Part shown: piece by piece, positions 11,623 to 56,538 of the stretch | How positions within the stretch are numbered: the first letter of the stretch is position 1 | Layout of the letters: each line of letters begins with the position of its first letter | Origin: a virus | Strand: one strand, 5' to 3' | Length of the DNA stretch: 64,000 bases | Virus record (IMG/VR): IMGVR_UViG_3300023176_006361 | Span: 12,812 to 76,811 of that record | The notes under the pieces: generated by a model | Database searches by the model: none | What the model was told of the DNA's origin: nothing | Seen by the model: the letters and a program-made list of their open reading frames with translations, nothing else | Program-made: the position numbers and the translations under genes

Positions 11623-13935
11623 TTATGCCTCTAATTGTACTACTTTGAGAGTTACGGTAATTTGTTGTTGGGAACCACTACGATTCGTTACTGACGCATA
11701 AATGCTAGTATTGGGTGTGGCTTCATAGTTGAATCCAATAGTTCCAGGAGTAATTTGTTGAGTGCCATCGACTCTAACTTCTGCAATAACACCAGATCCT
11801 GGTGATGGGTCAGTACCTTCCCCTCTATTTAGATCATTTGCTCTAGAAGCTGCAGTCGTATATAGTCTTACCCAAGCATCTGCTGATGTTGTAATTGCCA
11901 AAAGAACATAAGACTTGAAACCTGTAAGGTTTACATTGGAATCAGTGGTGTCAGTTGCGATATTCTGGGTCTGTGCTGCAACATCAGTTCTTGCTTGCAG
12001 AGAACCTGTTCCTCCACCACCACCACCAATAACCTCTGCTGGTGCCCATTGAGAACCATTCCACTGAAGATAATGTCCAGCAGTGATTGTTTGACCACCA
12101 CCAGTTGTTCCTGCAGCAGATGAAACGTTAGCAAGATCACCAAGATTCTGAGGAACTGTTGGTTTGTTTAGAATCTGTGCAACACCAGAAGTCGCATCCC
12201 AATCACTATTGACTTGAGTTGCTGCAAGGTTGGGAAGGTTCTGGAGATTGTTGTAATCACCATACTCTGAAGGGATGGGGATATTATGGTAGGTCGTACC
12301 ATCGTTGGTAAATTCCCACCTATCACTTGTCTCATTCCATCTGACTCTAGTGTCGTTAGAAGCAGAACGTTCAACAACAACTGAAGCATTTGCAGTTGGT
12401 GCAACAGGAATCGTCAGTTCAATAGCAGTCTGTGAACCAGAACCACCAAAGTTTGTGTTGAGAGTAATCTGAGTACCACTATCAATACTTGCAACAGTTG
12501 CTGCTCCAAGTGTCAGTGTTCCTGCATTACCAGTAATCGTTACCGATGCACCTTGCGTTATTCCTGAAGTTGATGCAAGGTTAGTGACAACTGCAGAGTT
12601 TGCAGAGGCATCACCAGTGAATACGCCAAGATTGTCATTCAGAACAACTTCATTGTTAGTGACATTCAGAGTCGCAACATTATTAGTTGTTGTGGTTCCA
12701 GTAACATTCAGGTTACCAGAAACTGTAACATCAGTGAACGTTGGTGATGAATTTGCAGTAACAAGATCAGTTGGTTTGTTTTTGATGTATGCAACACTTG
12801 TTGTCGATGTTTGAGTCCAGTCTGCTTGAACTTGAGCAAATGGTTGACCACCAAGATCGTTATAGTTCAGTTGGGAGTTTACCCAATTAGATCCGTTATA
12901 TCTAAGAACCTGTGCAGTAGCAGGAGTGTTTACAACAACATCAGACAGACCATCCAGATCGGATGCTCCACCAGTGCCACCACCAACAATACCGCCAACA
13001 GCACCACCACTCAGGTTAGAGAAAACACCAACCTTGAGTTCTTTACCAGATGCAATGTTGAACGCTTGTCCAGATCCTACGTTGATGTTATCGCAGAAGG
13101 TATAAGCATAATCTGTAGATGGATTTACAGTAACTGAAGAAGTTGTATTCAGATCAGGAGCAAATCTAATCTCTGGTGTATTTGCATCAAGAGGAATATC
13201 GCCAACATTGAGTGATGCACCACCAGTTGCAACAGAACTCCAACCAGAACCATTATGAGTTCTGAGTTCATTCAGAGCATCATCATAATAGATATCTCCT
13301 TCACCAAGACCTGCTGCGTTTGCTGCAATCTCGTCAGCATATCTGACATATAATTTTTTTGAAGTTACCGAATCATCAGCAATCTTTGCTGTGGTAATAT
13401 TTGCATCTTTGATGTGATCAGTGGTGATTGCTCTCAGAGCATCAGAAGTTGTGCTATTACCAATCTTAGATGAAACGACCGCACCATCTCTGATGTGATT
13501 GTTGGTAACTGCTCTAAGGCTATCTGATGTACCACTAGAAGATAATTTAGCACTTGTAACAGAACTGTTCTGAAGTGCTGCAGTATCTACTTTATTGGCA
13601 AGATCTGCTGTCTCTAAGTTGATATTACCTGTTCTTCCTTCAAAAGTTTGAACGCCTGAAGGTGCAACTGATACAATATCAACACTTTTCTGAAGATAGC
13701 GAACAAGAATCGCATCTCCCTGAGCGGGTGTTGATGTAAAAGTAATTTCGTTTTTTAGTGTGCCACCAATTTCATATTCTTCAGTGTTCTTCAGAACACC
13801 ATTGATGAACACAAGCAATTCCGTATCCTCGTTTACGGATTTTGAAAGTGTTTCTGTGGCGTTACCAGAAGCAGTGATCGACTGTTCAGCAAGATCAACT
13901 GTACTATTTTCTACTCCGTAACCGATATATGGCAT
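11623..13935 (-). CDS. Tail fibre-like protein
   Basis: 770 aa; MPYIG N-terminal domain, 10-aa VTxAKI repeats, LDGLSDV..QVLRYNGSNW and QADW..IKNKP fibre motifs, GNLNVTGTTT. Confidence 0.75.
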   Translation of the reverse strand: MPYIGYGVENSTVDLAEQSITASGNATETLSKSVNEDTELLVFINGVLKNTEEYEIGGTLKNEITFTSTPAQGDAILVRYLQKSVDIVSVAPSGVQTFEGRTGNINLETADLANKVDTAALQNSSVTSAKLSSSGTSDSLRAVTNNHIRDGAVVSSKIGNSTTSDALRAITTDHIKDANITTAKIADDSVTSKKLYVRYADEIAANAAGLGEGDIYYDDALNELRTHNGSGWSSVATGGASLNVGDIPLDANTPEIRFAPDLNTTSSVTVNPSTDYAYTFCDNINVGSGQAFNIASGKELKVGVFSNLSGGAVGGIVGGGTGGASDLDGLSDVVVNTPATAQVLRYNGSNWVNSQLNYNDLGGQPFAQVQADWTQTSTTSVAYIKNKPTDLVTANSSPTFTDVTVSGNLNVTGTTTTNNVATLNVTNNEVVLNDNLGVFTGDASANSAVVTNLASTSGITQGASVTITGNAGTLTLGAATVASIDSGTQITLNTNFGGSGSQTAIELTIPVAPTANASVVVERSASNDTRVRWNETSDRWEFTNDGTTYHNIPIPSEYGDYNNLQNLPNLAATQVNSDWDATSGVAQILNKPTVPQNLGDLANVSSAAGTTGGGQTITAGHYLQWNGSQWAPAEVIGGGGGGTGSLQARTDVAAQTQNIATDTTDSNVNLTGFKSYVLLAITTSADAWVRLYTTAASRANDLNRGEGTDPSPGSGVIAEVRVDGTQQITPGTIGFNYEATPNTSIYASVTNRSGSQQQITVTLKVVQLEA

Positions 13936-17500: not shown

Positions 17501-20500
17501 AATAAGAATGTACCGCTGTGATAATGATATTCACCATTTTGTTCTGGATGTCCACCAGCACTGTCTACACCATAATACAATTCATTGTGAACAGCATTAT
17601 ACTCAAATCCTGGTGGTGGATTGTCTTGACTTCCTGGGAGAGCACCAGGACCAGCAGATGGGTTGAATAAAACAACACCATTAGATGCGATACCAAGAGC
17701 ACCAAGAGTCCATGGTGTCAATGATGGTGAATTTGTACCACCTCTATAAACAATTGTATGATTTAGAGTTTGTGCTGAAGTAGTATTTGGATTAGCGCCG
17801 TTTGGATGTGGACCATGAGTTGCTGGATCTGGAAGTTGATCAGAAACAATCGTCATCAAATACTCTGAAGCAGAGAAGTTGCTGCTTGTCAATGACAAAC
17901 TATCATCAGCACTTACTCCATTTGGTCTAATGATATTGATTGCCGATCCAACCTGAGTTTGAAGTACCGTTAGAACTTGTGCAGTGGATGTAACTGAACT
18001 GTAGAAAGAAGTTGAGTCAGCATCAGAAGTCCCTCCAGTTGTGGTAAAGTCGTAATAGATACGTGATCTAAATGAATAACCATTCAAAGATAATGGTGGT
18101 AAAATTTCAAGTGTTCCTGTTCCAAGTCCAGATGTATACCAGGACTCAGTTCCATCAATATACGTATAACCATTTCCATCATCATATTCCCAGAGAATTA
18201 CTCCATTTGGAACTGCGGGTGTTGAAAGATTTGTATAAGTTACTGTAAAAGTATATGGCGTGCTTTGATTGACACTACCTGTAGCAGGAATATCTGTGCC
18301 GACACTATAGACTGGATCAACACTAACTACTCCACTTGTTCCTCCTTGAGTTTGTGAAACAAGCAGTTGTGGATGATCAATAAGAACAACTAATTGAGCA
18401 CCATCATCACTAGGATTGAATCCATCAATTGATGCTTCACCAACTCTTACACTGTAGAGTTGATGTCCATTAGATCCAGTTTGTCCTTGAAGTGCTTCGA
18501 TTCCATATGGACTACCAGGAAGATACGAAGGATTTGCTGGCGTTGCCCCAGGATCATAACCAAGAGAAATTATTGGGGTAGATCCATCACTGAAAGTCGC
18601 TTCAATTTCTACTCTACCTGTATTTGCTCCAGCAAAAATATTTGTCAGAGAAGCATTATCCCAATAAGTATTATGAGTAAGTGTTACTGTAGCAGTGAAG
18701 GTTCTTGCTAGAGTTCTAACATCCGCAGCATTTCCCGAATCTGCAGATACTACGCATGAGAAGAAGTAACCACTTATGTCAGTACTATCAGGAACAGTCA
18801 AAGTTGCTGTATTGACACCACTGACATTAGCAAGAACTGCTGCATCATTCCACTGTCCATTATTGACTGCTGCTTGAGTTGTAGCATACTGCCAACCATA
18901 ACTCAAAGATCCTGCATCAGAAGCAGATGCTGTAACAGCAAAAGTAGCAGTTCCACCATCTACTGGATATGATCCATCTCCAGTTGCATTAGATGGTTGA
19001 ACATCGATTGTAATTACTGCGTTATTAGTGCCTGAGAGTGTAAATGAACGATCAAGTACATTTCCAGAAACTTTTTCTCTAATACGGAATGTGTAAGTTT
19101 CATCTGATGGACCTGAAGTTGCAGTTCCTGAAAATACACCAGTTGCAGAATTAAAGGTAAATCCAGAACCAGTAATTGTATAAACACCATTACTCTCTGT
19201 AAATGCTGAGGTTGACCCAGTATCTACTAATTCAAATTCTGGTGTGATGTATTGGGAACTTACAGTTTCTCCAGCAAAAGTAGTGGTTGTTACTGATACT
19301 GTAGTTGTAAATGTAGATCCATCATTGAGAGTTATACCATCAATGTTATTTGGAGTTTCGCTCCAAGTAGTTGTCAGATCAACAAATGGGAAGAAGATGC
19401 CTTGACCGCCGTCATATGTAACTGACTGAGTTCCTGAAGAAACTGGATTATATCTTCTTTCTTCTTCTGGGTTTGCATTGAGATAAGCTGCTCCCCAACG
19501 ACGACCAGCAAGACCGAGTTCAGAGAATCCACTACCAGTTGATTGTATAACTCTTGATTTTGGAACAGGGAATTGCTTTACAGCAATACCACCACCATAT
19601 TCCTCAGTTTCTAACTGAGCCCAAATATCACCAGCGACGAATGGATTACCGTCAGGTGCATTTCCAGACCTTACAACGCTTGAGTAATTAGTAATCCAAT
19701 TATAAATTGCATCATTTGCAAAGAAAGTCCCTTCAATTTTGGTGAATCTCATTGGCCATCTTGGACGACCACCAATAATCGAGTCATCATCTGCTTTATT
19801 GAACATGCTGCCGCCACCTTGTTCGGTGCCAGTTGCAGTTGTATCAGCAGTGAATGTAATAGTTTTATTTGTAGAGTCAATTGCCGTGACTGTTCTCCAC
19901 TTAGAGCAAAAATCTGGGAGAGAAATACCACCAATTGTTGCTTCAGTAACATTTGTTGCAGAAATAAGCTCTGCTCCCATTCCTGGATGATTTTGGCAAT
20001 AGTAGTAATAACTTGCTGATGTAGCAACAGTACTAGGAACGTCTGGGTGAGTATCTCCTCTTGGATCAATAAATTCAATATAACACTCTACTCCGCCACC
20101 AACAGCAGCACTATAAGTTGCTTTATCTACTTCTCCTTGCCCAGCAACAAAATAACGAATACAATTGTTGGTGTTCAAGCTCAAACTAGTAAAATATGCA
20201 TCAAAGGAATCTCCACCAGAATGAGTTCCATCTGATGTTGGAGAAATATCTAATGGATGAGTTGCATTAGATGCATCAGTTTGAAGGAATCTATAAACTA
20301 CACCTTGTTCAATGGAAAGATTTGGTTGAGATGCAGGAGATCCAGCAGCAACACCATTTTGAATTCTATCAAATGCAAATACTCCACCAGAAACAGTTAC
20401 TTCATATTTTATGATTTCGCCAAGGTTGAAAGTATCTTTCTTTCTCTCATCGTGAAGTAGAGTTGTTGGATTTTGTGTTCCAGGATCAGTAACTCTGGGA

Positions 20501-54628: not shown

Positions 54629-54686
54629 ATAATACCCCACTAGGAGCGCCTGTGGGGTACTTGTGTGCCACTTTAGGTAGTGTCAC
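54629..54686 (-). promoter_or_regulatory. Early promoter cassette d with internal stem-loop
   Basis: GTGACACT-ACCTAA-AGTGGCAC (54665-54686); TACCCCAC...GTGGGGTA inverted repeat in the spacer; -10 TATTAT at 54629-54634. Confidence 0.8.
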
Positions 54687-54892
54687 CCTCTAAGTTGACT
54701 ATTTGCCTCTTTTAGGGCATTATATAAATCTTCTTCATCTTTGAAAGATTCGATATCAACTTCTCTTTCATATTCTGGATCTTCAGAAATACCTTGAGCA
54801 CCAATTGGTACAGACTTTAGAATATCATCTTCAAGATAAATTGCAAGATTCCAATCAGGAATCAAGTGATAATTTCTTTCCATTTGTGTCAT
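54683..54892 (-). CDS. Hypothetical protein
   Basis: 69 aa; preceded by GATAAATA at 54914-54921. Confidence 0.6.
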   Translation of the reverse strand: MTQMERNYHLIPDWNLAIYLEDDILKSVPIGAQGISEDPEYEREVDIESFKDEEDLYNALKEANSQLRG

Positions 54893-54913
54893 TAGTAATG
54901 TACATGTAACATA

Positions 54914-54921
54914 TATTTATC
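54914..54921 (-). promoter_or_regulatory. Late-type promoter GATAAATA
   Basis: 21 nt upstream of the 54892 start. Confidence 0.5.
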
Positions 54922-55000
54922 ATGCATATGTGGTGTGGGTAGGGGTGAGTGGGGTGCAGCACACATACACATGCGTTCTTGCACACATATGCTCACACAC

Positions 55001-55029
55001 ATTATACACGAATCTCGTACATATGTCTA
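55001..55029 (-). promoter_or_regulatory. sigma70-like promoter TAGACA-17-TATAAT
   Basis: -35 at 55024-55029, -10 at 55001-55006; imperfect direct repeat of 55173-55201. Confidence 0.65.
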
Positions 55030-55075
55030 GTGCATACATATACATCTAGATGTACGTACATAATATGTGTGTATA

Positions 55076-55263
55076 TCTAGACTAGATTATAGAGATCTAG
55101 TTATGATCTAGTAGAGTCTAGTAGAGATTATAGACGCACATATCTAGACTAGATTATGAGTCTAGTAGAGATATTATAGATGAATCTCGACTATATGTCA
55201 AGTATAGACTAGATTATATGTGCGAATCTAGACTAGAAATTTATGGAGGGTCTCGACTAGATT
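55076..55263. repeat. Cluster of about nine TCTMKACTAGA iteron-like repeats in both orientations
   Basis: Forward copies at 55076, 55143, 55185 (degenerate), 55203, 55227, 55251; reverse copies (TCTAGTAGAG) at 55107, 55117, 55161. Confidence 0.8.
55173..55201 (-). promoter_or_regulatory. Perfect sigma70 promoter TTGACA-17-TATAAT
   Basis: -35 at 55196-55201, -10 at 55173-55178; points into non-coding DNA. Confidence 0.8.
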
Positions 55264-55274
55264 TTGGGGGGGTG

Positions 55275-55303
55275 TTGACAAAACCGCCGAGATCTGATAG
55301 ACT
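55275..55303 (+). promoter_or_regulatory. sigma70 promoter TTGACA-17-TAGACT (extended TG)
   Basis: Upstream of the only plus-strand operon. Confidence 0.75.
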
Positions 55304-55330
55304 GCACGCTAAGATGACTACAAGGGAGCA

Positions 55331-55370
55331 CATAAACCAACATAAACTCACATAAACTCATATAAGAATA
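55331..55370 (+). repeat. Four tandem 10-bp repeats (CATAAACTCA-like)
   Basis: cataaaccaa cataaactca cataaactca tataagaata. Confidence 0.7.
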
Positions 55371-55371
55371 C

Positions 55372-55414
55372 TTTTCCACAGTTTCCACAAGTTTTTCAAC
55401 AGGGTTGTGGAAAA
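55372..55414. promoter_or_regulatory. Four cyanobacterial-type DnaA-box-like 9-mers
   Basis: TTTTCCACA 55372-55380, GTTTCCACA 55381-55389, TTTTCAACA 55393-55401, reverse TGTGGAAAA 55406-55414. Confidence 0.65.
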
Positions 55415-55467
55415 CTATAAACAACACAAACCTATTTTTTTATACATTTACAAAAAGTCCGCATCTC

Positions 55468-56103
55468 ATGACATTACTTGATTTCATGCCAAATATAAGG
55501 CAACAAGAGACAAAATCAGAGAAAGAATACGATACAAATCTTACACAAATACAGAATGAATACAAGAGTAAATTGAAGAAGAGTAAGTCATTTACGCAGA
55601 TGACTGAACAAAAGAACTTTGGTTTATTTCAGTATGAGTTTTATAAACAAGCATTGAAGATACATTCTCATATGGGTATTGTTTATAAGTTATCAACATC
55701 AAGTATTGACACTGGTGATGACTTAGGTGTAATTAGGGAAGAGAAAGGAAAGAGAAGAGAATTGTTTAGTTTACAATTCAAGACTGGTAGAGTCACACAA
55801 ACTAATAAGAGTGGTCGTGCTGTTGATATAAAGAAAGCAATGAAAGGTAAAGGTGGATCAGAGAATCATCATTTGAGATTATATAAAGTTGAGGAATTTG
55901 ATTTCTTAGTATGTGTTGATGGTATTGATGGAAGGGATGATCTTTTTATATTTGATAGGGAGACATTGATTTCACCATCTAACCCAACACATTATAAACA
56001 ACAACAATCTCTTTCACCACAGTATTGGGATAGACATCATTGCAATCGTGGTGGATGGGAATTACTCATGCCAGAACTAAAAGAGGTACAAAACTATGAA
56101 TGA
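55468..56103 (+). CDS. PD-(D/E)xK endonuclease, homing-endonuclease-like
   Basis: Start reassigned to ATG 55468; DTGDDLGV...SLQFKT...LYKVEEFDFLVCVD pattern resembles group I intron-associated PD-(D/E)xK enzymes. Confidence 0.6.
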   Translation: MTLLDFMPNIRQQETKSEKEYDTNLTQIQNEYKSKLKKSKSFTQMTEQKNFGLFQYEFYKQALKIHSHMGIVYKLSTSSIDTGDDLGVIREEKGKRRELFSLQFKTGRVTQTNKSGRAVDIKKAMKGKGGSENHHLRLYKVEEFDFLVCVDGIDGRDDLFIFDRETLISPSNPTHYKQQQSLSPQYWDRHHCNRGGWELLMPELKEVQNYE

Positions 56104-56344
56104 ACGTTGGATACAAGAAGAGATGGCAGACATTGACCGTTTCATTGATGAATGTTATAATAATGACGTTGTTTGGGAAGAAGAAGTGGGTCCAATGATT
56201 ACATACGATTCACTTGTTGGTAAATTCACATTCTTCTGGGAAGGAAGAGTCAAGTATTTTGATTCACATGAAACAGCAGAAGATTGGATCAAACTAAACA
56301 ATGCTCGTCGTATTCAAGAACGTAAAAAGGAGATCAATCAATGA
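56096..56344 (+). CDS. Hypothetical protein
   Basis: 82 aa; SD GAGG; coupled in the plus-strand operon. Confidence 0.7.
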   Translation: MNERWIQEEMADIDRFIDECYNNDVVWEEEVGPMITYDSLVGKFTFFWEGRVKYFDSHETAEDWIKLNNARRIQERKKEINQ

Positions 56345-56538
56345 AAGATCAGTATGTCATCGAAGATGGTGAAAGTAAGAGGGACAAATGGAATCGTGGA
56401 TTAGATTTATTCATCGAGTCTGTATTGAAACCAGATCCTGCATTACGTCAATGTGCTCATAATCAGAAATGTTATCATGAGTTGATGGATGTAAGAAATG
56501 ATATGCTTGAATACTTGAAGACAAAGCGTTGGGAATAA
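56341..56538 (+). CDS. Conserved cyanophage protein (ESVLKPD..LRQCAHNQKCYHELM family)
   Basis: 65 aa; SD AAGGAG; paralogue of 63051..63254. Confidence 0.8.
   Translation: MKDQYVIEDGESKRDKWNRGLDLFIESVLKPDPALRQCAHNQKCYHELMDVRNDMLEYLKTKRWE

Follow-up and report, generated by a model that had tools for sequence, protein, structure and literature searches.

A conserved promoter, DnaA-box and AT-rich module in a non-coding gap of a T4-like cyanophage: a candidate early replication origin

We analysed 64,000 nucleotides (nt) of viral DNA (hereafter the window, to whose positions all coordinates refer unless otherwise stated; positions 12,812 to 76,811 of IMG/VR record IMGVR_UViG_3300023176_006361), and within it the non-coding gap at 54893–55467. 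Our tentative reading, based upon sequence comparison, is that this gap is a control region acting in cis and centred on a module conserved in the Kyanoviridae (an extended −10 promoter, a cluster of DnaA-type boxes and an AT-rich block) which might serve as an early phage replication origin. By analogy the element is best read as a candidate DnaA-docking, transcription-primed and origin-like one, resembling oriE and oriF of T4. The window represents the last 64 kb of a 76.8-kb viral fragment of 41% estimated completeness. DNA similarity assigns it to the T4-like cyanophages of the family Kyanoviridae, the nearest isolate being Synechococcus phage S-BM3 (~78% identity across the flanks and the gap).

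The rightward module and its conservation

A scan for open reading frames (ORFs) confirmed an earlier, sequence-only reading of this DNA in that the gap is the largest non-coding one: no other part of the window goes as far without an ORF of at least 60 amino acids (aa) (512 nt; the runner-up is 387 nt). Every element listed by that reading was found where it had been placed, far above chance. The rightward half of the gap contains the following:

55275–55303, + strand: rightward promoter TTGACA-N14-TGA-TAGACT with an extended −10 region, the start of the conserved core
55304–55324, + strand: leader block GCACGCTAAGATGACTACAAG, its columns nearly invariant across five phages
55329–55365, + strand: 10-mer CACATAAACT in 3.7 tandem copies (TRF)
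55372–55414, no strand assigned: putative DnaA-box cluster, with TTTTCCACA at 55372, GTTTCCACA at 55381, TTTTCAACA at 55393 and, inverted, TGTGGAAAA at 55406
55416–55451, + strand: TATAAACAACAC and then the AT-rich block CCTATTTTTTTATACATTTAC, where conservation within the module is highest; a candidate unwinding or binding element

The promoter, anticipated as TTGACA-17-TAGACT and present as such, carries a TG upstream of its −10 hexamer and is retained in S-BM3, in a metagenomic relative (L067), in S-SM2 and S-SCSM1, and in Prochlorococcus phage P-TIM68. Its transcript is predicted to start at ~55307–55310. The homologue of the leader block, GTGCTAAGAC, acts as the −10 region in modules of the S-PM2 type. 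The 10-bp tandem repeats, likewise foreseen, are absent in S-BM3, and repeats of the ACATAAG or ACATTTA type occupy the same place in L067, S-SCSM1 and P-TIM68. The boxes lie at about +65 to +110 downstream of the promoter, all four within 43 bp. Three exact copies of TTTTCCACA, which we take to be the cyanobacterial form of the DnaA box, exist in the record; two of them are in the gap (55372 on the + and 55406 on the − strand), 34 nt apart and with two one-mismatch boxes between them. The phage 9-mers conform to the DnaA consensus TTWTNCACA (two exactly, two with one mismatch). The last two, TTTTCAACA at 55393 and the inverted TGTGGAAAA at 55406, form a facing pair with 4 nt between them. The AT block proper (55431–55451) falls within ~150 nt of the promoter.

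Alignments with S-BM3, with two metagenomic near-relatives (L013 and L007) and with the more distant L067 (whose full gap is L319) retain the promoters, a family of CTAG-containing repeats described below, the box cluster, and a block of 45 nt that extends from the inverted box across TATAAACAACAC into the AT-rich block; the 10-mers and a G-tract come and go. Beyond this clade the core consists of a TTGACA-N14-TGn-TAnAnT promoter with the leader GCACGCYWAGAT(G/C)AC, boxes of the TTTTCCACA class ending in the facing pair, TATAAACAAC, and the AT block TAT-N-TTTTTT-AAT-ACATTT. It aligns co-linearly in the window, S-BM3, L067, S-SM2 and S-SCSM1, and occurs in rearranged form (promoter, AT block, two direct boxes and one inverted) in S-PM2, S-RIM32, S-RIM8, Syn9 and S-CAM1; in all, it was found in at least 10 genera of Kyanoviridae. 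The expectation that the elements of the gap would recur in other Kyanoviridae thus held for promoter, boxes and AT block, which are conserved as a unit, and failed for the CTAG repeats, which are confined to the clade and lie outside the conserved core.

In nine complete genomes the exact boxes fall mostly into one clustered locus each. S-RIM32 possesses two clusters 1 kb apart and S-CAM1 a second, loose pair; the whole S-RSM4 record is devoid of an exact box, and no module was found in the stretch of S-RSM4 examined. Nowhere in the 177-kb genome of Syn9 are boxes more densely clustered than at the module, which is placed at ~52.6 kb there, at ~19.2 kb in S-PM2 and at ~6.7 kb in S-BM3. In seven phages (S-SM2, S-PM2, S-RIM8, S-RIM32, S-SCSM1, S-CAM1 and Syn9) it occupies a gap within a long run of genes on a single strand, and its promoter opposes all neighbouring genes with no annotated gene of its own strand behind it, an arrangement which fits a non-coding transcript.

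The facing pair, searched for as TTTTCMACA-N4-TGTGGAAAA, was recovered from more than 119 IMG/VR contigs. Among the 119 matches listed, 91 have at least three boxes within 100 nt, 30 have the AT block no more than 120 nt from the pair, and 28 have the promoter-leader motif upstream; both of the latter elements are ~10-fold or more above the background of the same loci. Strong matches to the palindromic element were restricted to Kyanoviridae among 50,697 isolate phage records.

Two further observations concern the module itself. At 55415–55422 and at the equivalent positions of S-PM2, S-RIM32 and S-RIM8, right after the last inverted box, are found CTATAAAC / CTCTAAAT / CTATAACT, which differ at one position from the T4 late-promoter core TATAAAT and are oriented as the sigma70 promoter. 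A late promoter here, if present, would tie the module to late transcription, which depends on replication. In S-PM2 (NC_006820, 18506–19333; L307 1431–2258) tRNAs for Leu, Asn, Met, Ala and Thr are annotated over and beside the module; ARAGORN detected no tRNA in 18506–19333, and the annotation coordinates of this record look unreliable.

Readers of the boxes, the proposed mechanism and its rivals

The pattern of change in the boxes points to a protein. Across 95 non-redundant viral loci, 50 one-mismatch boxes flank the pair; positions 1–3 account for 84% of their changes and the TCCACA core is almost invariant, whereas mismatches in control DNA are spread out. Individual boxes turn over and the cluster persists. 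A consensus fold of six type-2 modules yielded the palindrome hairpin only, with compensatory change in none of its nine pairs and with uncompensated breaks. The rightward transcript folds no better than its shuffles (z = −0.4), and neither an Rfam scan nor a tRNA scan produced anything relevant. Since compensatory pairs are lacking, since boxes turn over around a stable TCCACA, and since direct repeats at 12-nt spacing are not explained by pairing, the boxes bear the signature of sites for a sequence-specific DNA-binding protein and not of RNA structure. The RNA-structure hypothesis was rejected for want of covariation.

Which protein this might be is suggested by the consensus. Relatives also carry TTATCCACA and TTATACACA, both exact DnaA consensus forms; TTTTCCACA appears among the species-specific DnaA-box motifs of the Ori-Finder and DoriC papers; and a cyanobacterial metagenome-assembled genome contains the same facing pair within a 7-box cluster. 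Five complete Kyanoviridae encode nothing resembling DnaA domain IV, which the control genomes do have, so a DnaA-type reader would be that of the host. We infer that DnaA is the most economical reader of the boxes.

A sequence of events can be envisaged as follows. Host RNA polymerase with the primary sigma factor would fire from the extended −10 promoter at 55275–55303, and the resulting untranslated, unstructured transcript would cross the boxes (55372–55414) into the AT block (55431–55451). Host DnaA would dock on the boxes; together with transcription it would open the easily melted DNA nearby, where the RNA would stay hybridised as an R-loop and prime leading-strand synthesis by the T4-type replisome of the phage. 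In this clade the CTAG repeats, the duplicated leftward promoters and the alternating leader would add a second, divergent early transcription unit, and it is in this clade-specific shell that the duplex of the locus is least stable. That DnaA binding, R-loop formation and replication initiation take place at the module is what we infer; an origin-like role is suggested by the mostly single locus, the opposed promoter, the linkage of boxes to AT block, and the T4 precedents.

Transcription was assessed from Logan contigs of four salt-marsh metatranscriptome runs, which report cover only and not strand, ends or level; DNA carry-over is possible, and uncovered parts carry no weight. In three of the four runs contigs overlap both the left gene and the leftward leader, jointly spanning 54669–55239. 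The fourth gave one contig at 54727–54909 and another at 55330–55472, over the 10-mers, boxes and AT block. No contig of the four runs covers 55473–55850. The uneven cover hints, weakly, at transcription of both non-coding arms.

Several observations weigh against an origin read by DnaA. The cumulative GC skew of Syn9, taken over the whole genome, rises monotonically and does not turn where the module lies. In certain phages (S-RIM32, L075, L067) there are two clusters, or else boxes that precede ordinary early promoters, and in P-TIM68 a lone box, TTATACACA, is found inside the cassette with the facing pair 190 nt upstream. The rightward RNA is A/C-rich, which is unfavourable for stable R-loops, and by nearest-neighbour calculation the AT block is only moderately unstable, the iteron region upstream of the promoter being weaker. 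We know of no need for DnaA in T4-type replisomes. The host side fits poorly as well: the facing pair is present in just 2 of 401 sampled cyanobacterial genomes, so its binder need not be DnaA, and only one of the seven bacterial loci inspected that possess it is beside dnaA. Upstream of dnaN in four picocyanobacterial-type genomes, whose status as hosts is assumed on the basis of size and GC content (regions L321, L322, L323 and L320), the clusters consist of TTTTCTACA in 5–8 copies (three low-GC Prochlorococcus-like genomes, G025, G004 and G010) or of TTTTCCAC[TC] (the GC-rich G008); genome-wide in G004 and G025, exact TTTTCCACA is neither clustered nor more frequent than background. The box usually cited for cyanobacteria does not, then, describe the sampled picocyanobacteria.

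With respect to skew, the 76.8-kb record displays a broad minimum at 52–55 kb of the window; it is a fragment, and the trend tracks gene strand. The monotonic rise in Syn9 is likewise due to nearly all genes lying on one strand. Cumulative GC skew, put forward as a check of the proposed origin, follows gene orientation with nothing attributable to the module, and is uninformative on origin position.

From these comparisons the phage boxes match the canonical high-affinity DnaA consensus and are not copied from the sampled host oriC; both the idea that they are such copies and the rule that a facing pair marks oriC were rejected, on the differing dnaN-upstream variants and the 2 of 401 genomes in the one case and on the one locus in seven in the other. 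The earlier description of the boxes as "host-type" is accordingly loose: the boxes upstream of dnaN in the sampled picocyanobacteria are of other variants, and the facing pair is rare in cyanobacterial genomes.

The module might instead be a transcription switch, in which a box-bound factor, DnaA or another, acts as roadblock or activator of the rightward transcript and the back-to-back early promoters and so ties early phage expression to the replication state of the host, as DnaA does at lambda pR. We regard this as possible, if somewhat unlikely. It would account for boxes placed downstream of a conserved strong promoter, for the box clusters just upstream of ordinary early promoters (the second site of L075 and the left cluster of L067), for a transcript which in most relatives is antisense to the neighbouring genes, and for three consensus promoters within 300 bp. 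It does not sit well with what is mostly one locus per 170–230-kb genome, with no regulon-like spread, nor with the tight link to a conserved AT-rich block of no obvious regulatory role; and neither a conserved target nor a conserved RNA structure came to light. A different reader altogether seems improbable to us: a dimeric phage or host protein bound to the 22-bp palindrome TTTTCCACA-N4-TGTGGAAAA, the likeness to DnaA sites being coincidence or mimicry. Such a protein would explain why the pair is common on viral contigs and so rare in cyanobacterial genomes and beside dnaA, why the boxes upstream of host dnaN differ at position 6 or 9, and why position 5 is an invariant C although the DnaA consensus permits any base. 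Single boxes and tandem boxes at 12-nt spacing, however, fit monomer arrays over a strict dimer operator, the variants TTATCCACA and TTATACACA are consensus DnaA forms, the cyanobacterial 7-box cluster includes the same pair, and no candidate binder gene is nearby.

Very improbable is a DnaA sink, in which the boxes on many phage copies would titrate host DnaA in the manner of datA and halt initiation on the host chromosome. The phage boxes are indeed closer to the canonical consensus than those upstream of dnaN in the sampled hosts, and they come in clusters of 3–6, but one small cluster per genome would make a weak sink, and the conserved promoter, leader, AT block and fixed orientation are left unexplained. 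We give least credence, and hardly any, to the idea that the functional product is an RNA, either small and structured or a long leader, with the DNA motifs as by-products of hairpins. Compared with its shuffles the leftward leader RNA has more structure (z = −3.4), as its many inverted repeats lead one to expect; contigs from three of the four RNA runs cover it, and the facing pair is able to fold into a hairpin of 9 bp. Yet the leftward leader is clade-specific in sequence, and the uncompensated breaks, the unstructured rightward RNA, the direct-repeat boxes and the lack of an Rfam match all argue the other way.

The origin-like control region therefore remains our favoured, if tentative, reading. 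The sequence-only proposal of a hybrid replication/control element survives in its anatomy, in the conserved unit of promoter, boxes and AT block, in the protein-site pattern and in the precedent of T4 oriE; it is weakened by the skew, by repeats found in one clade only, and by the looseness of the term "host-type".

The clade-specific leftward arm and the neighbouring genes

The left part of the gap and the two genes bordering it comprise:

54683–54892, − strand: acidic ORF of 69 aa, the first gene after the two leftward promoters; its S-BM3 homologue has 80 aa
54893–55075, no strand assigned: alternating purine/pyrimidine (CA/TG/TA) stretch, within the leftward transcribed leader
54931–54958, + strand: G-tract with runs of G3–4, by its sequence quadruplex-prone on the + strand
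55001–55029, − strand: P_L2, a sigma70-type promoter, TAGACA-17-TATAAT (consensus scan 11/12)
55041–55054, no strand assigned: perfect 14-bp palindrome TACATCTAGATGTA (exact), the 10-bp core of which is retained in S-BM3
55064–55266, no strand assigned: iteron-like repeats ATCTMKACTAGA / TCTAGTAGAG in both orientations, with three long copies of ~28 nt
55173–55201, − strand: P_L1, a sigma70-type promoter, TTGACA-17-TATAAT (consensus scan 12/12), whose leader would be ~270 nt
55468–56103, + strand: ORF of 211 aa immediately 3' of the module, missing in S-BM3, L007 and L067

The two leftward promoters which had been called from the sequence were recovered by the consensus scan with the scores given. 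They are copies of one 31-nt unit (81% identity; repeat family D4). P_L2 differs in S-BM3 by a single base, located in the spacer, and L067 also has a 12/12 leftward promoter, the leader of which is filled by ~22 CTAG. Purines and pyrimidines alternate in 0.79 of the steps of 54893–55075 against 0.49 in the window, the highest value of any 183-nt stretch; the longest perfect alternating run, 18 nt, is inside it, and the stretch is retained as a sequence type in S-BM3 and L067. The G-tract is retained in L013 and L067 and deleted in S-BM3 and L007.

About nine TCTMKACTAGA repeats in both orientations had been reported here, and we find as many: allowing up to one mismatch, ATCTMKACTAGA has nine matches in the whole 76.8-kb record and every one of them is in the gap, against an expectation of 0.07 (three sites with the near-palindromic core TCTAGACTAGA were scored on both strands). 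CTAG itself occurs 14 times in the gap. The repeats, 11–12 nt long and at spacings of 10, 44, 48, 60 and 67 nt, sit between the leftward promoters and downstream of them. They are retained in S-BM3, L007 and L067 and absent from S-SM2, Syn9 and S-RIM8. At the equivalent place S-PM2 and S-RIM32 have another repeat family (AATCTTAAG, GAGATTT/AAATCTC), and S-SM2, S-RIM8 and Syn9 have no such family, for which reason iterons were rejected as a universal part of the module. On these alignments the CTAG repeats, the duplicated leftward promoters, the G-tract, the alternating stretch and the 10-mers are a clade-private layer.

The least stable 40-mers by nearest-neighbour calculation fall in the CTAG region (55060–55180, the 99.9th percentile of the window). 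The CTAG repeats may be operators for a clade-specific factor, an easily melted region, or both. Pfam and PHROG searches of the flanking ORFs gave no Rep-like or DNA-binding gene adjoining them. The neighbouring proteins were rejected as their binders: all are small, acidic or family-less, and the 211-aa ORF is missing in phages where the repeats persist. A repeat-binding phage protein, with no binder-like gene nearby and with repeats limited to the clade, proved the least supported part of the sequence-only model.

The flanking genes are small, early-type ORFs with no assigned function (DUF7326, DUF6267, Kyano_Gp96 and several PHROGs). DUF7326 was rejected as a fixed synteny anchor, since it sits in uninterrupted gene runs in S-CAM1, S-RSM4 and S-SM2. 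The plus-strand island beside the gap is made up of three genes only (55468–56538). The divergent transcription attributed to the gap is therefore real with regard to its back-to-back promoters and local in extent; because the module in relatives lies in one-strand runs, mostly without an ORF behind it, the three-gene island would be a peculiarity of the clade.

Neither a Pfam nor a PHROG family was matched by the 69-aa ORF, a very acidic product preceded by two consensus promoters and a structured leader of 100–270 nt, and under metatranscriptome contigs in all four runs. The 211-aa ORF, for which no Pfam family was found, lies outside the conserved element because it is missing in S-BM3, L007 and L067; there, the homologue of an 82-aa ORF follows the module. 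It looks inserted, and has a motif reminiscent of PD-(D/E)xK nucleases.

The second box clusters mentioned above lie 0.5–1 kb from the main module, have no AT block and stand beside an ordinary early promoter (461–482 of L309, from S-RIM32; 3040–3106 of L075; 968–1050 of L319, reverse complement). A GC-rich palindrome of the type CCCCAC...GTGGGG is found at a fixed distance before early −10 boxes at 54636–54660 of the window, and again at ~852–876 of L319 (reverse complement) and 3112–3160 of L075. In L075 and L067 a DnaA-box cluster directly adjoins an early promoter with such a palindrome.

Likeness to known origins and significance

At T4 oriE, iterons of ~12 nt occur together with an early promoter and a divergence of transcription (Kreuzer and Brister 2010, PMC3016281). 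The gap shares with it a cluster of ~12-nt repeats, an early host-sigma70 promoter and a local transcription switch, with three sigma70-type promoters and the transcription units back to back; in both, the repeats have a putative role. Unlike the direct and evenly spaced repeats of T4, those described here are in both orientations, irregular and clade-specific; oriE has no DnaA boxes, and no RepEA/RepEB-like gene was identified here. In T4 oriF (uvsY) and oriG (gene 34) the unwinding element is downstream of the promoter. As in these, a promoter in the module is followed within ~150 nt by an AT-rich element, with no dedicated initiator gene. The T4 promoters are MotA-dependent middle promoters, whereas that of the module is a sigma70 extended −10 promoter with a TTGACA −35, and its promoter and AT block have a DnaA-box cluster between or next to them. 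The R-loop, which at oriF and oriG contains RNA from the nearby promoter and is thought to prime the leading strand (PMC3016281), is here proposed.

As in cyanobacterial oriC, 9-mers of the TTTTCCACA class form a tight cluster in both orientations, and similar clusters lie upstream of dnaN in the four picocyanobacterial genomes; these differ in consisting of TTTTCTACA or TTTTCCAC[TC] and in having no 4-nt facing pair, and the phage cluster, with 3–6 boxes, is smaller. Of the usual traits of a bacterial oriC, neither a dnaA or dnaN neighbour nor a skew switch accompanies the phage module. Iteron replicons (P1 oriR, F, pSC101, R6K) assemble repeats, DnaA boxes and an AT-rich region in a compact non-coding locus, and the gap likewise has DnaA boxes and an AT-rich region beside repeats; it differs in its irregular repeats, in having no adjacent Rep gene, and in belonging to a lytic T4-like phage with its own replisome. 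At lambda pR/ori-lambda, DnaA boxes lie downstream of a strong promoter, and transcription is linked to origin firing. The O-protein iterons of lambda are inside a gene and host DnaB is needed, whereas no O/P-like genes occur here. By its architecture, then, the module may be a candidate origin of the T4 type, with promoter and unwinding element, joined to host-initiator boxes of the kind found in iteron plasmids and lambda.

To our knowledge no replication origin has been mapped in any T4-like cyanophage. A full-text literature search found no paper on DnaA boxes in these phages, and for Syn9 a single theta origin has been predicted only (review PMC2984593). The module would be the best candidate for the start of replication in these related viruses. 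That T4-like cyanophages, unlike T4, fire one main early origin dependent on the host initiator DnaA is a broader proposition, and one which we consider possible, though doubtful.

A single, family-wide non-coding module with sites of the host-initiator type nevertheless provides a precise place to test. If the broader proposition is true, the module would be the first origin to be mapped in the most abundant marine cyanophage group and the first host-initiator-dependent origin in a phage of the T4 type, with a T4-type replisome started with the help of the host initiator. Phage replication would be gated by the state of host DnaA and thereby linked to the replication and growth state of the host (light, nutrients, cell cycle), which would matter for models of cyanobacterial mortality in the ocean. 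Should the module prove to be a transcription switch instead, it would still mean that a host factor feeds in a new way into the early programme of these phages.

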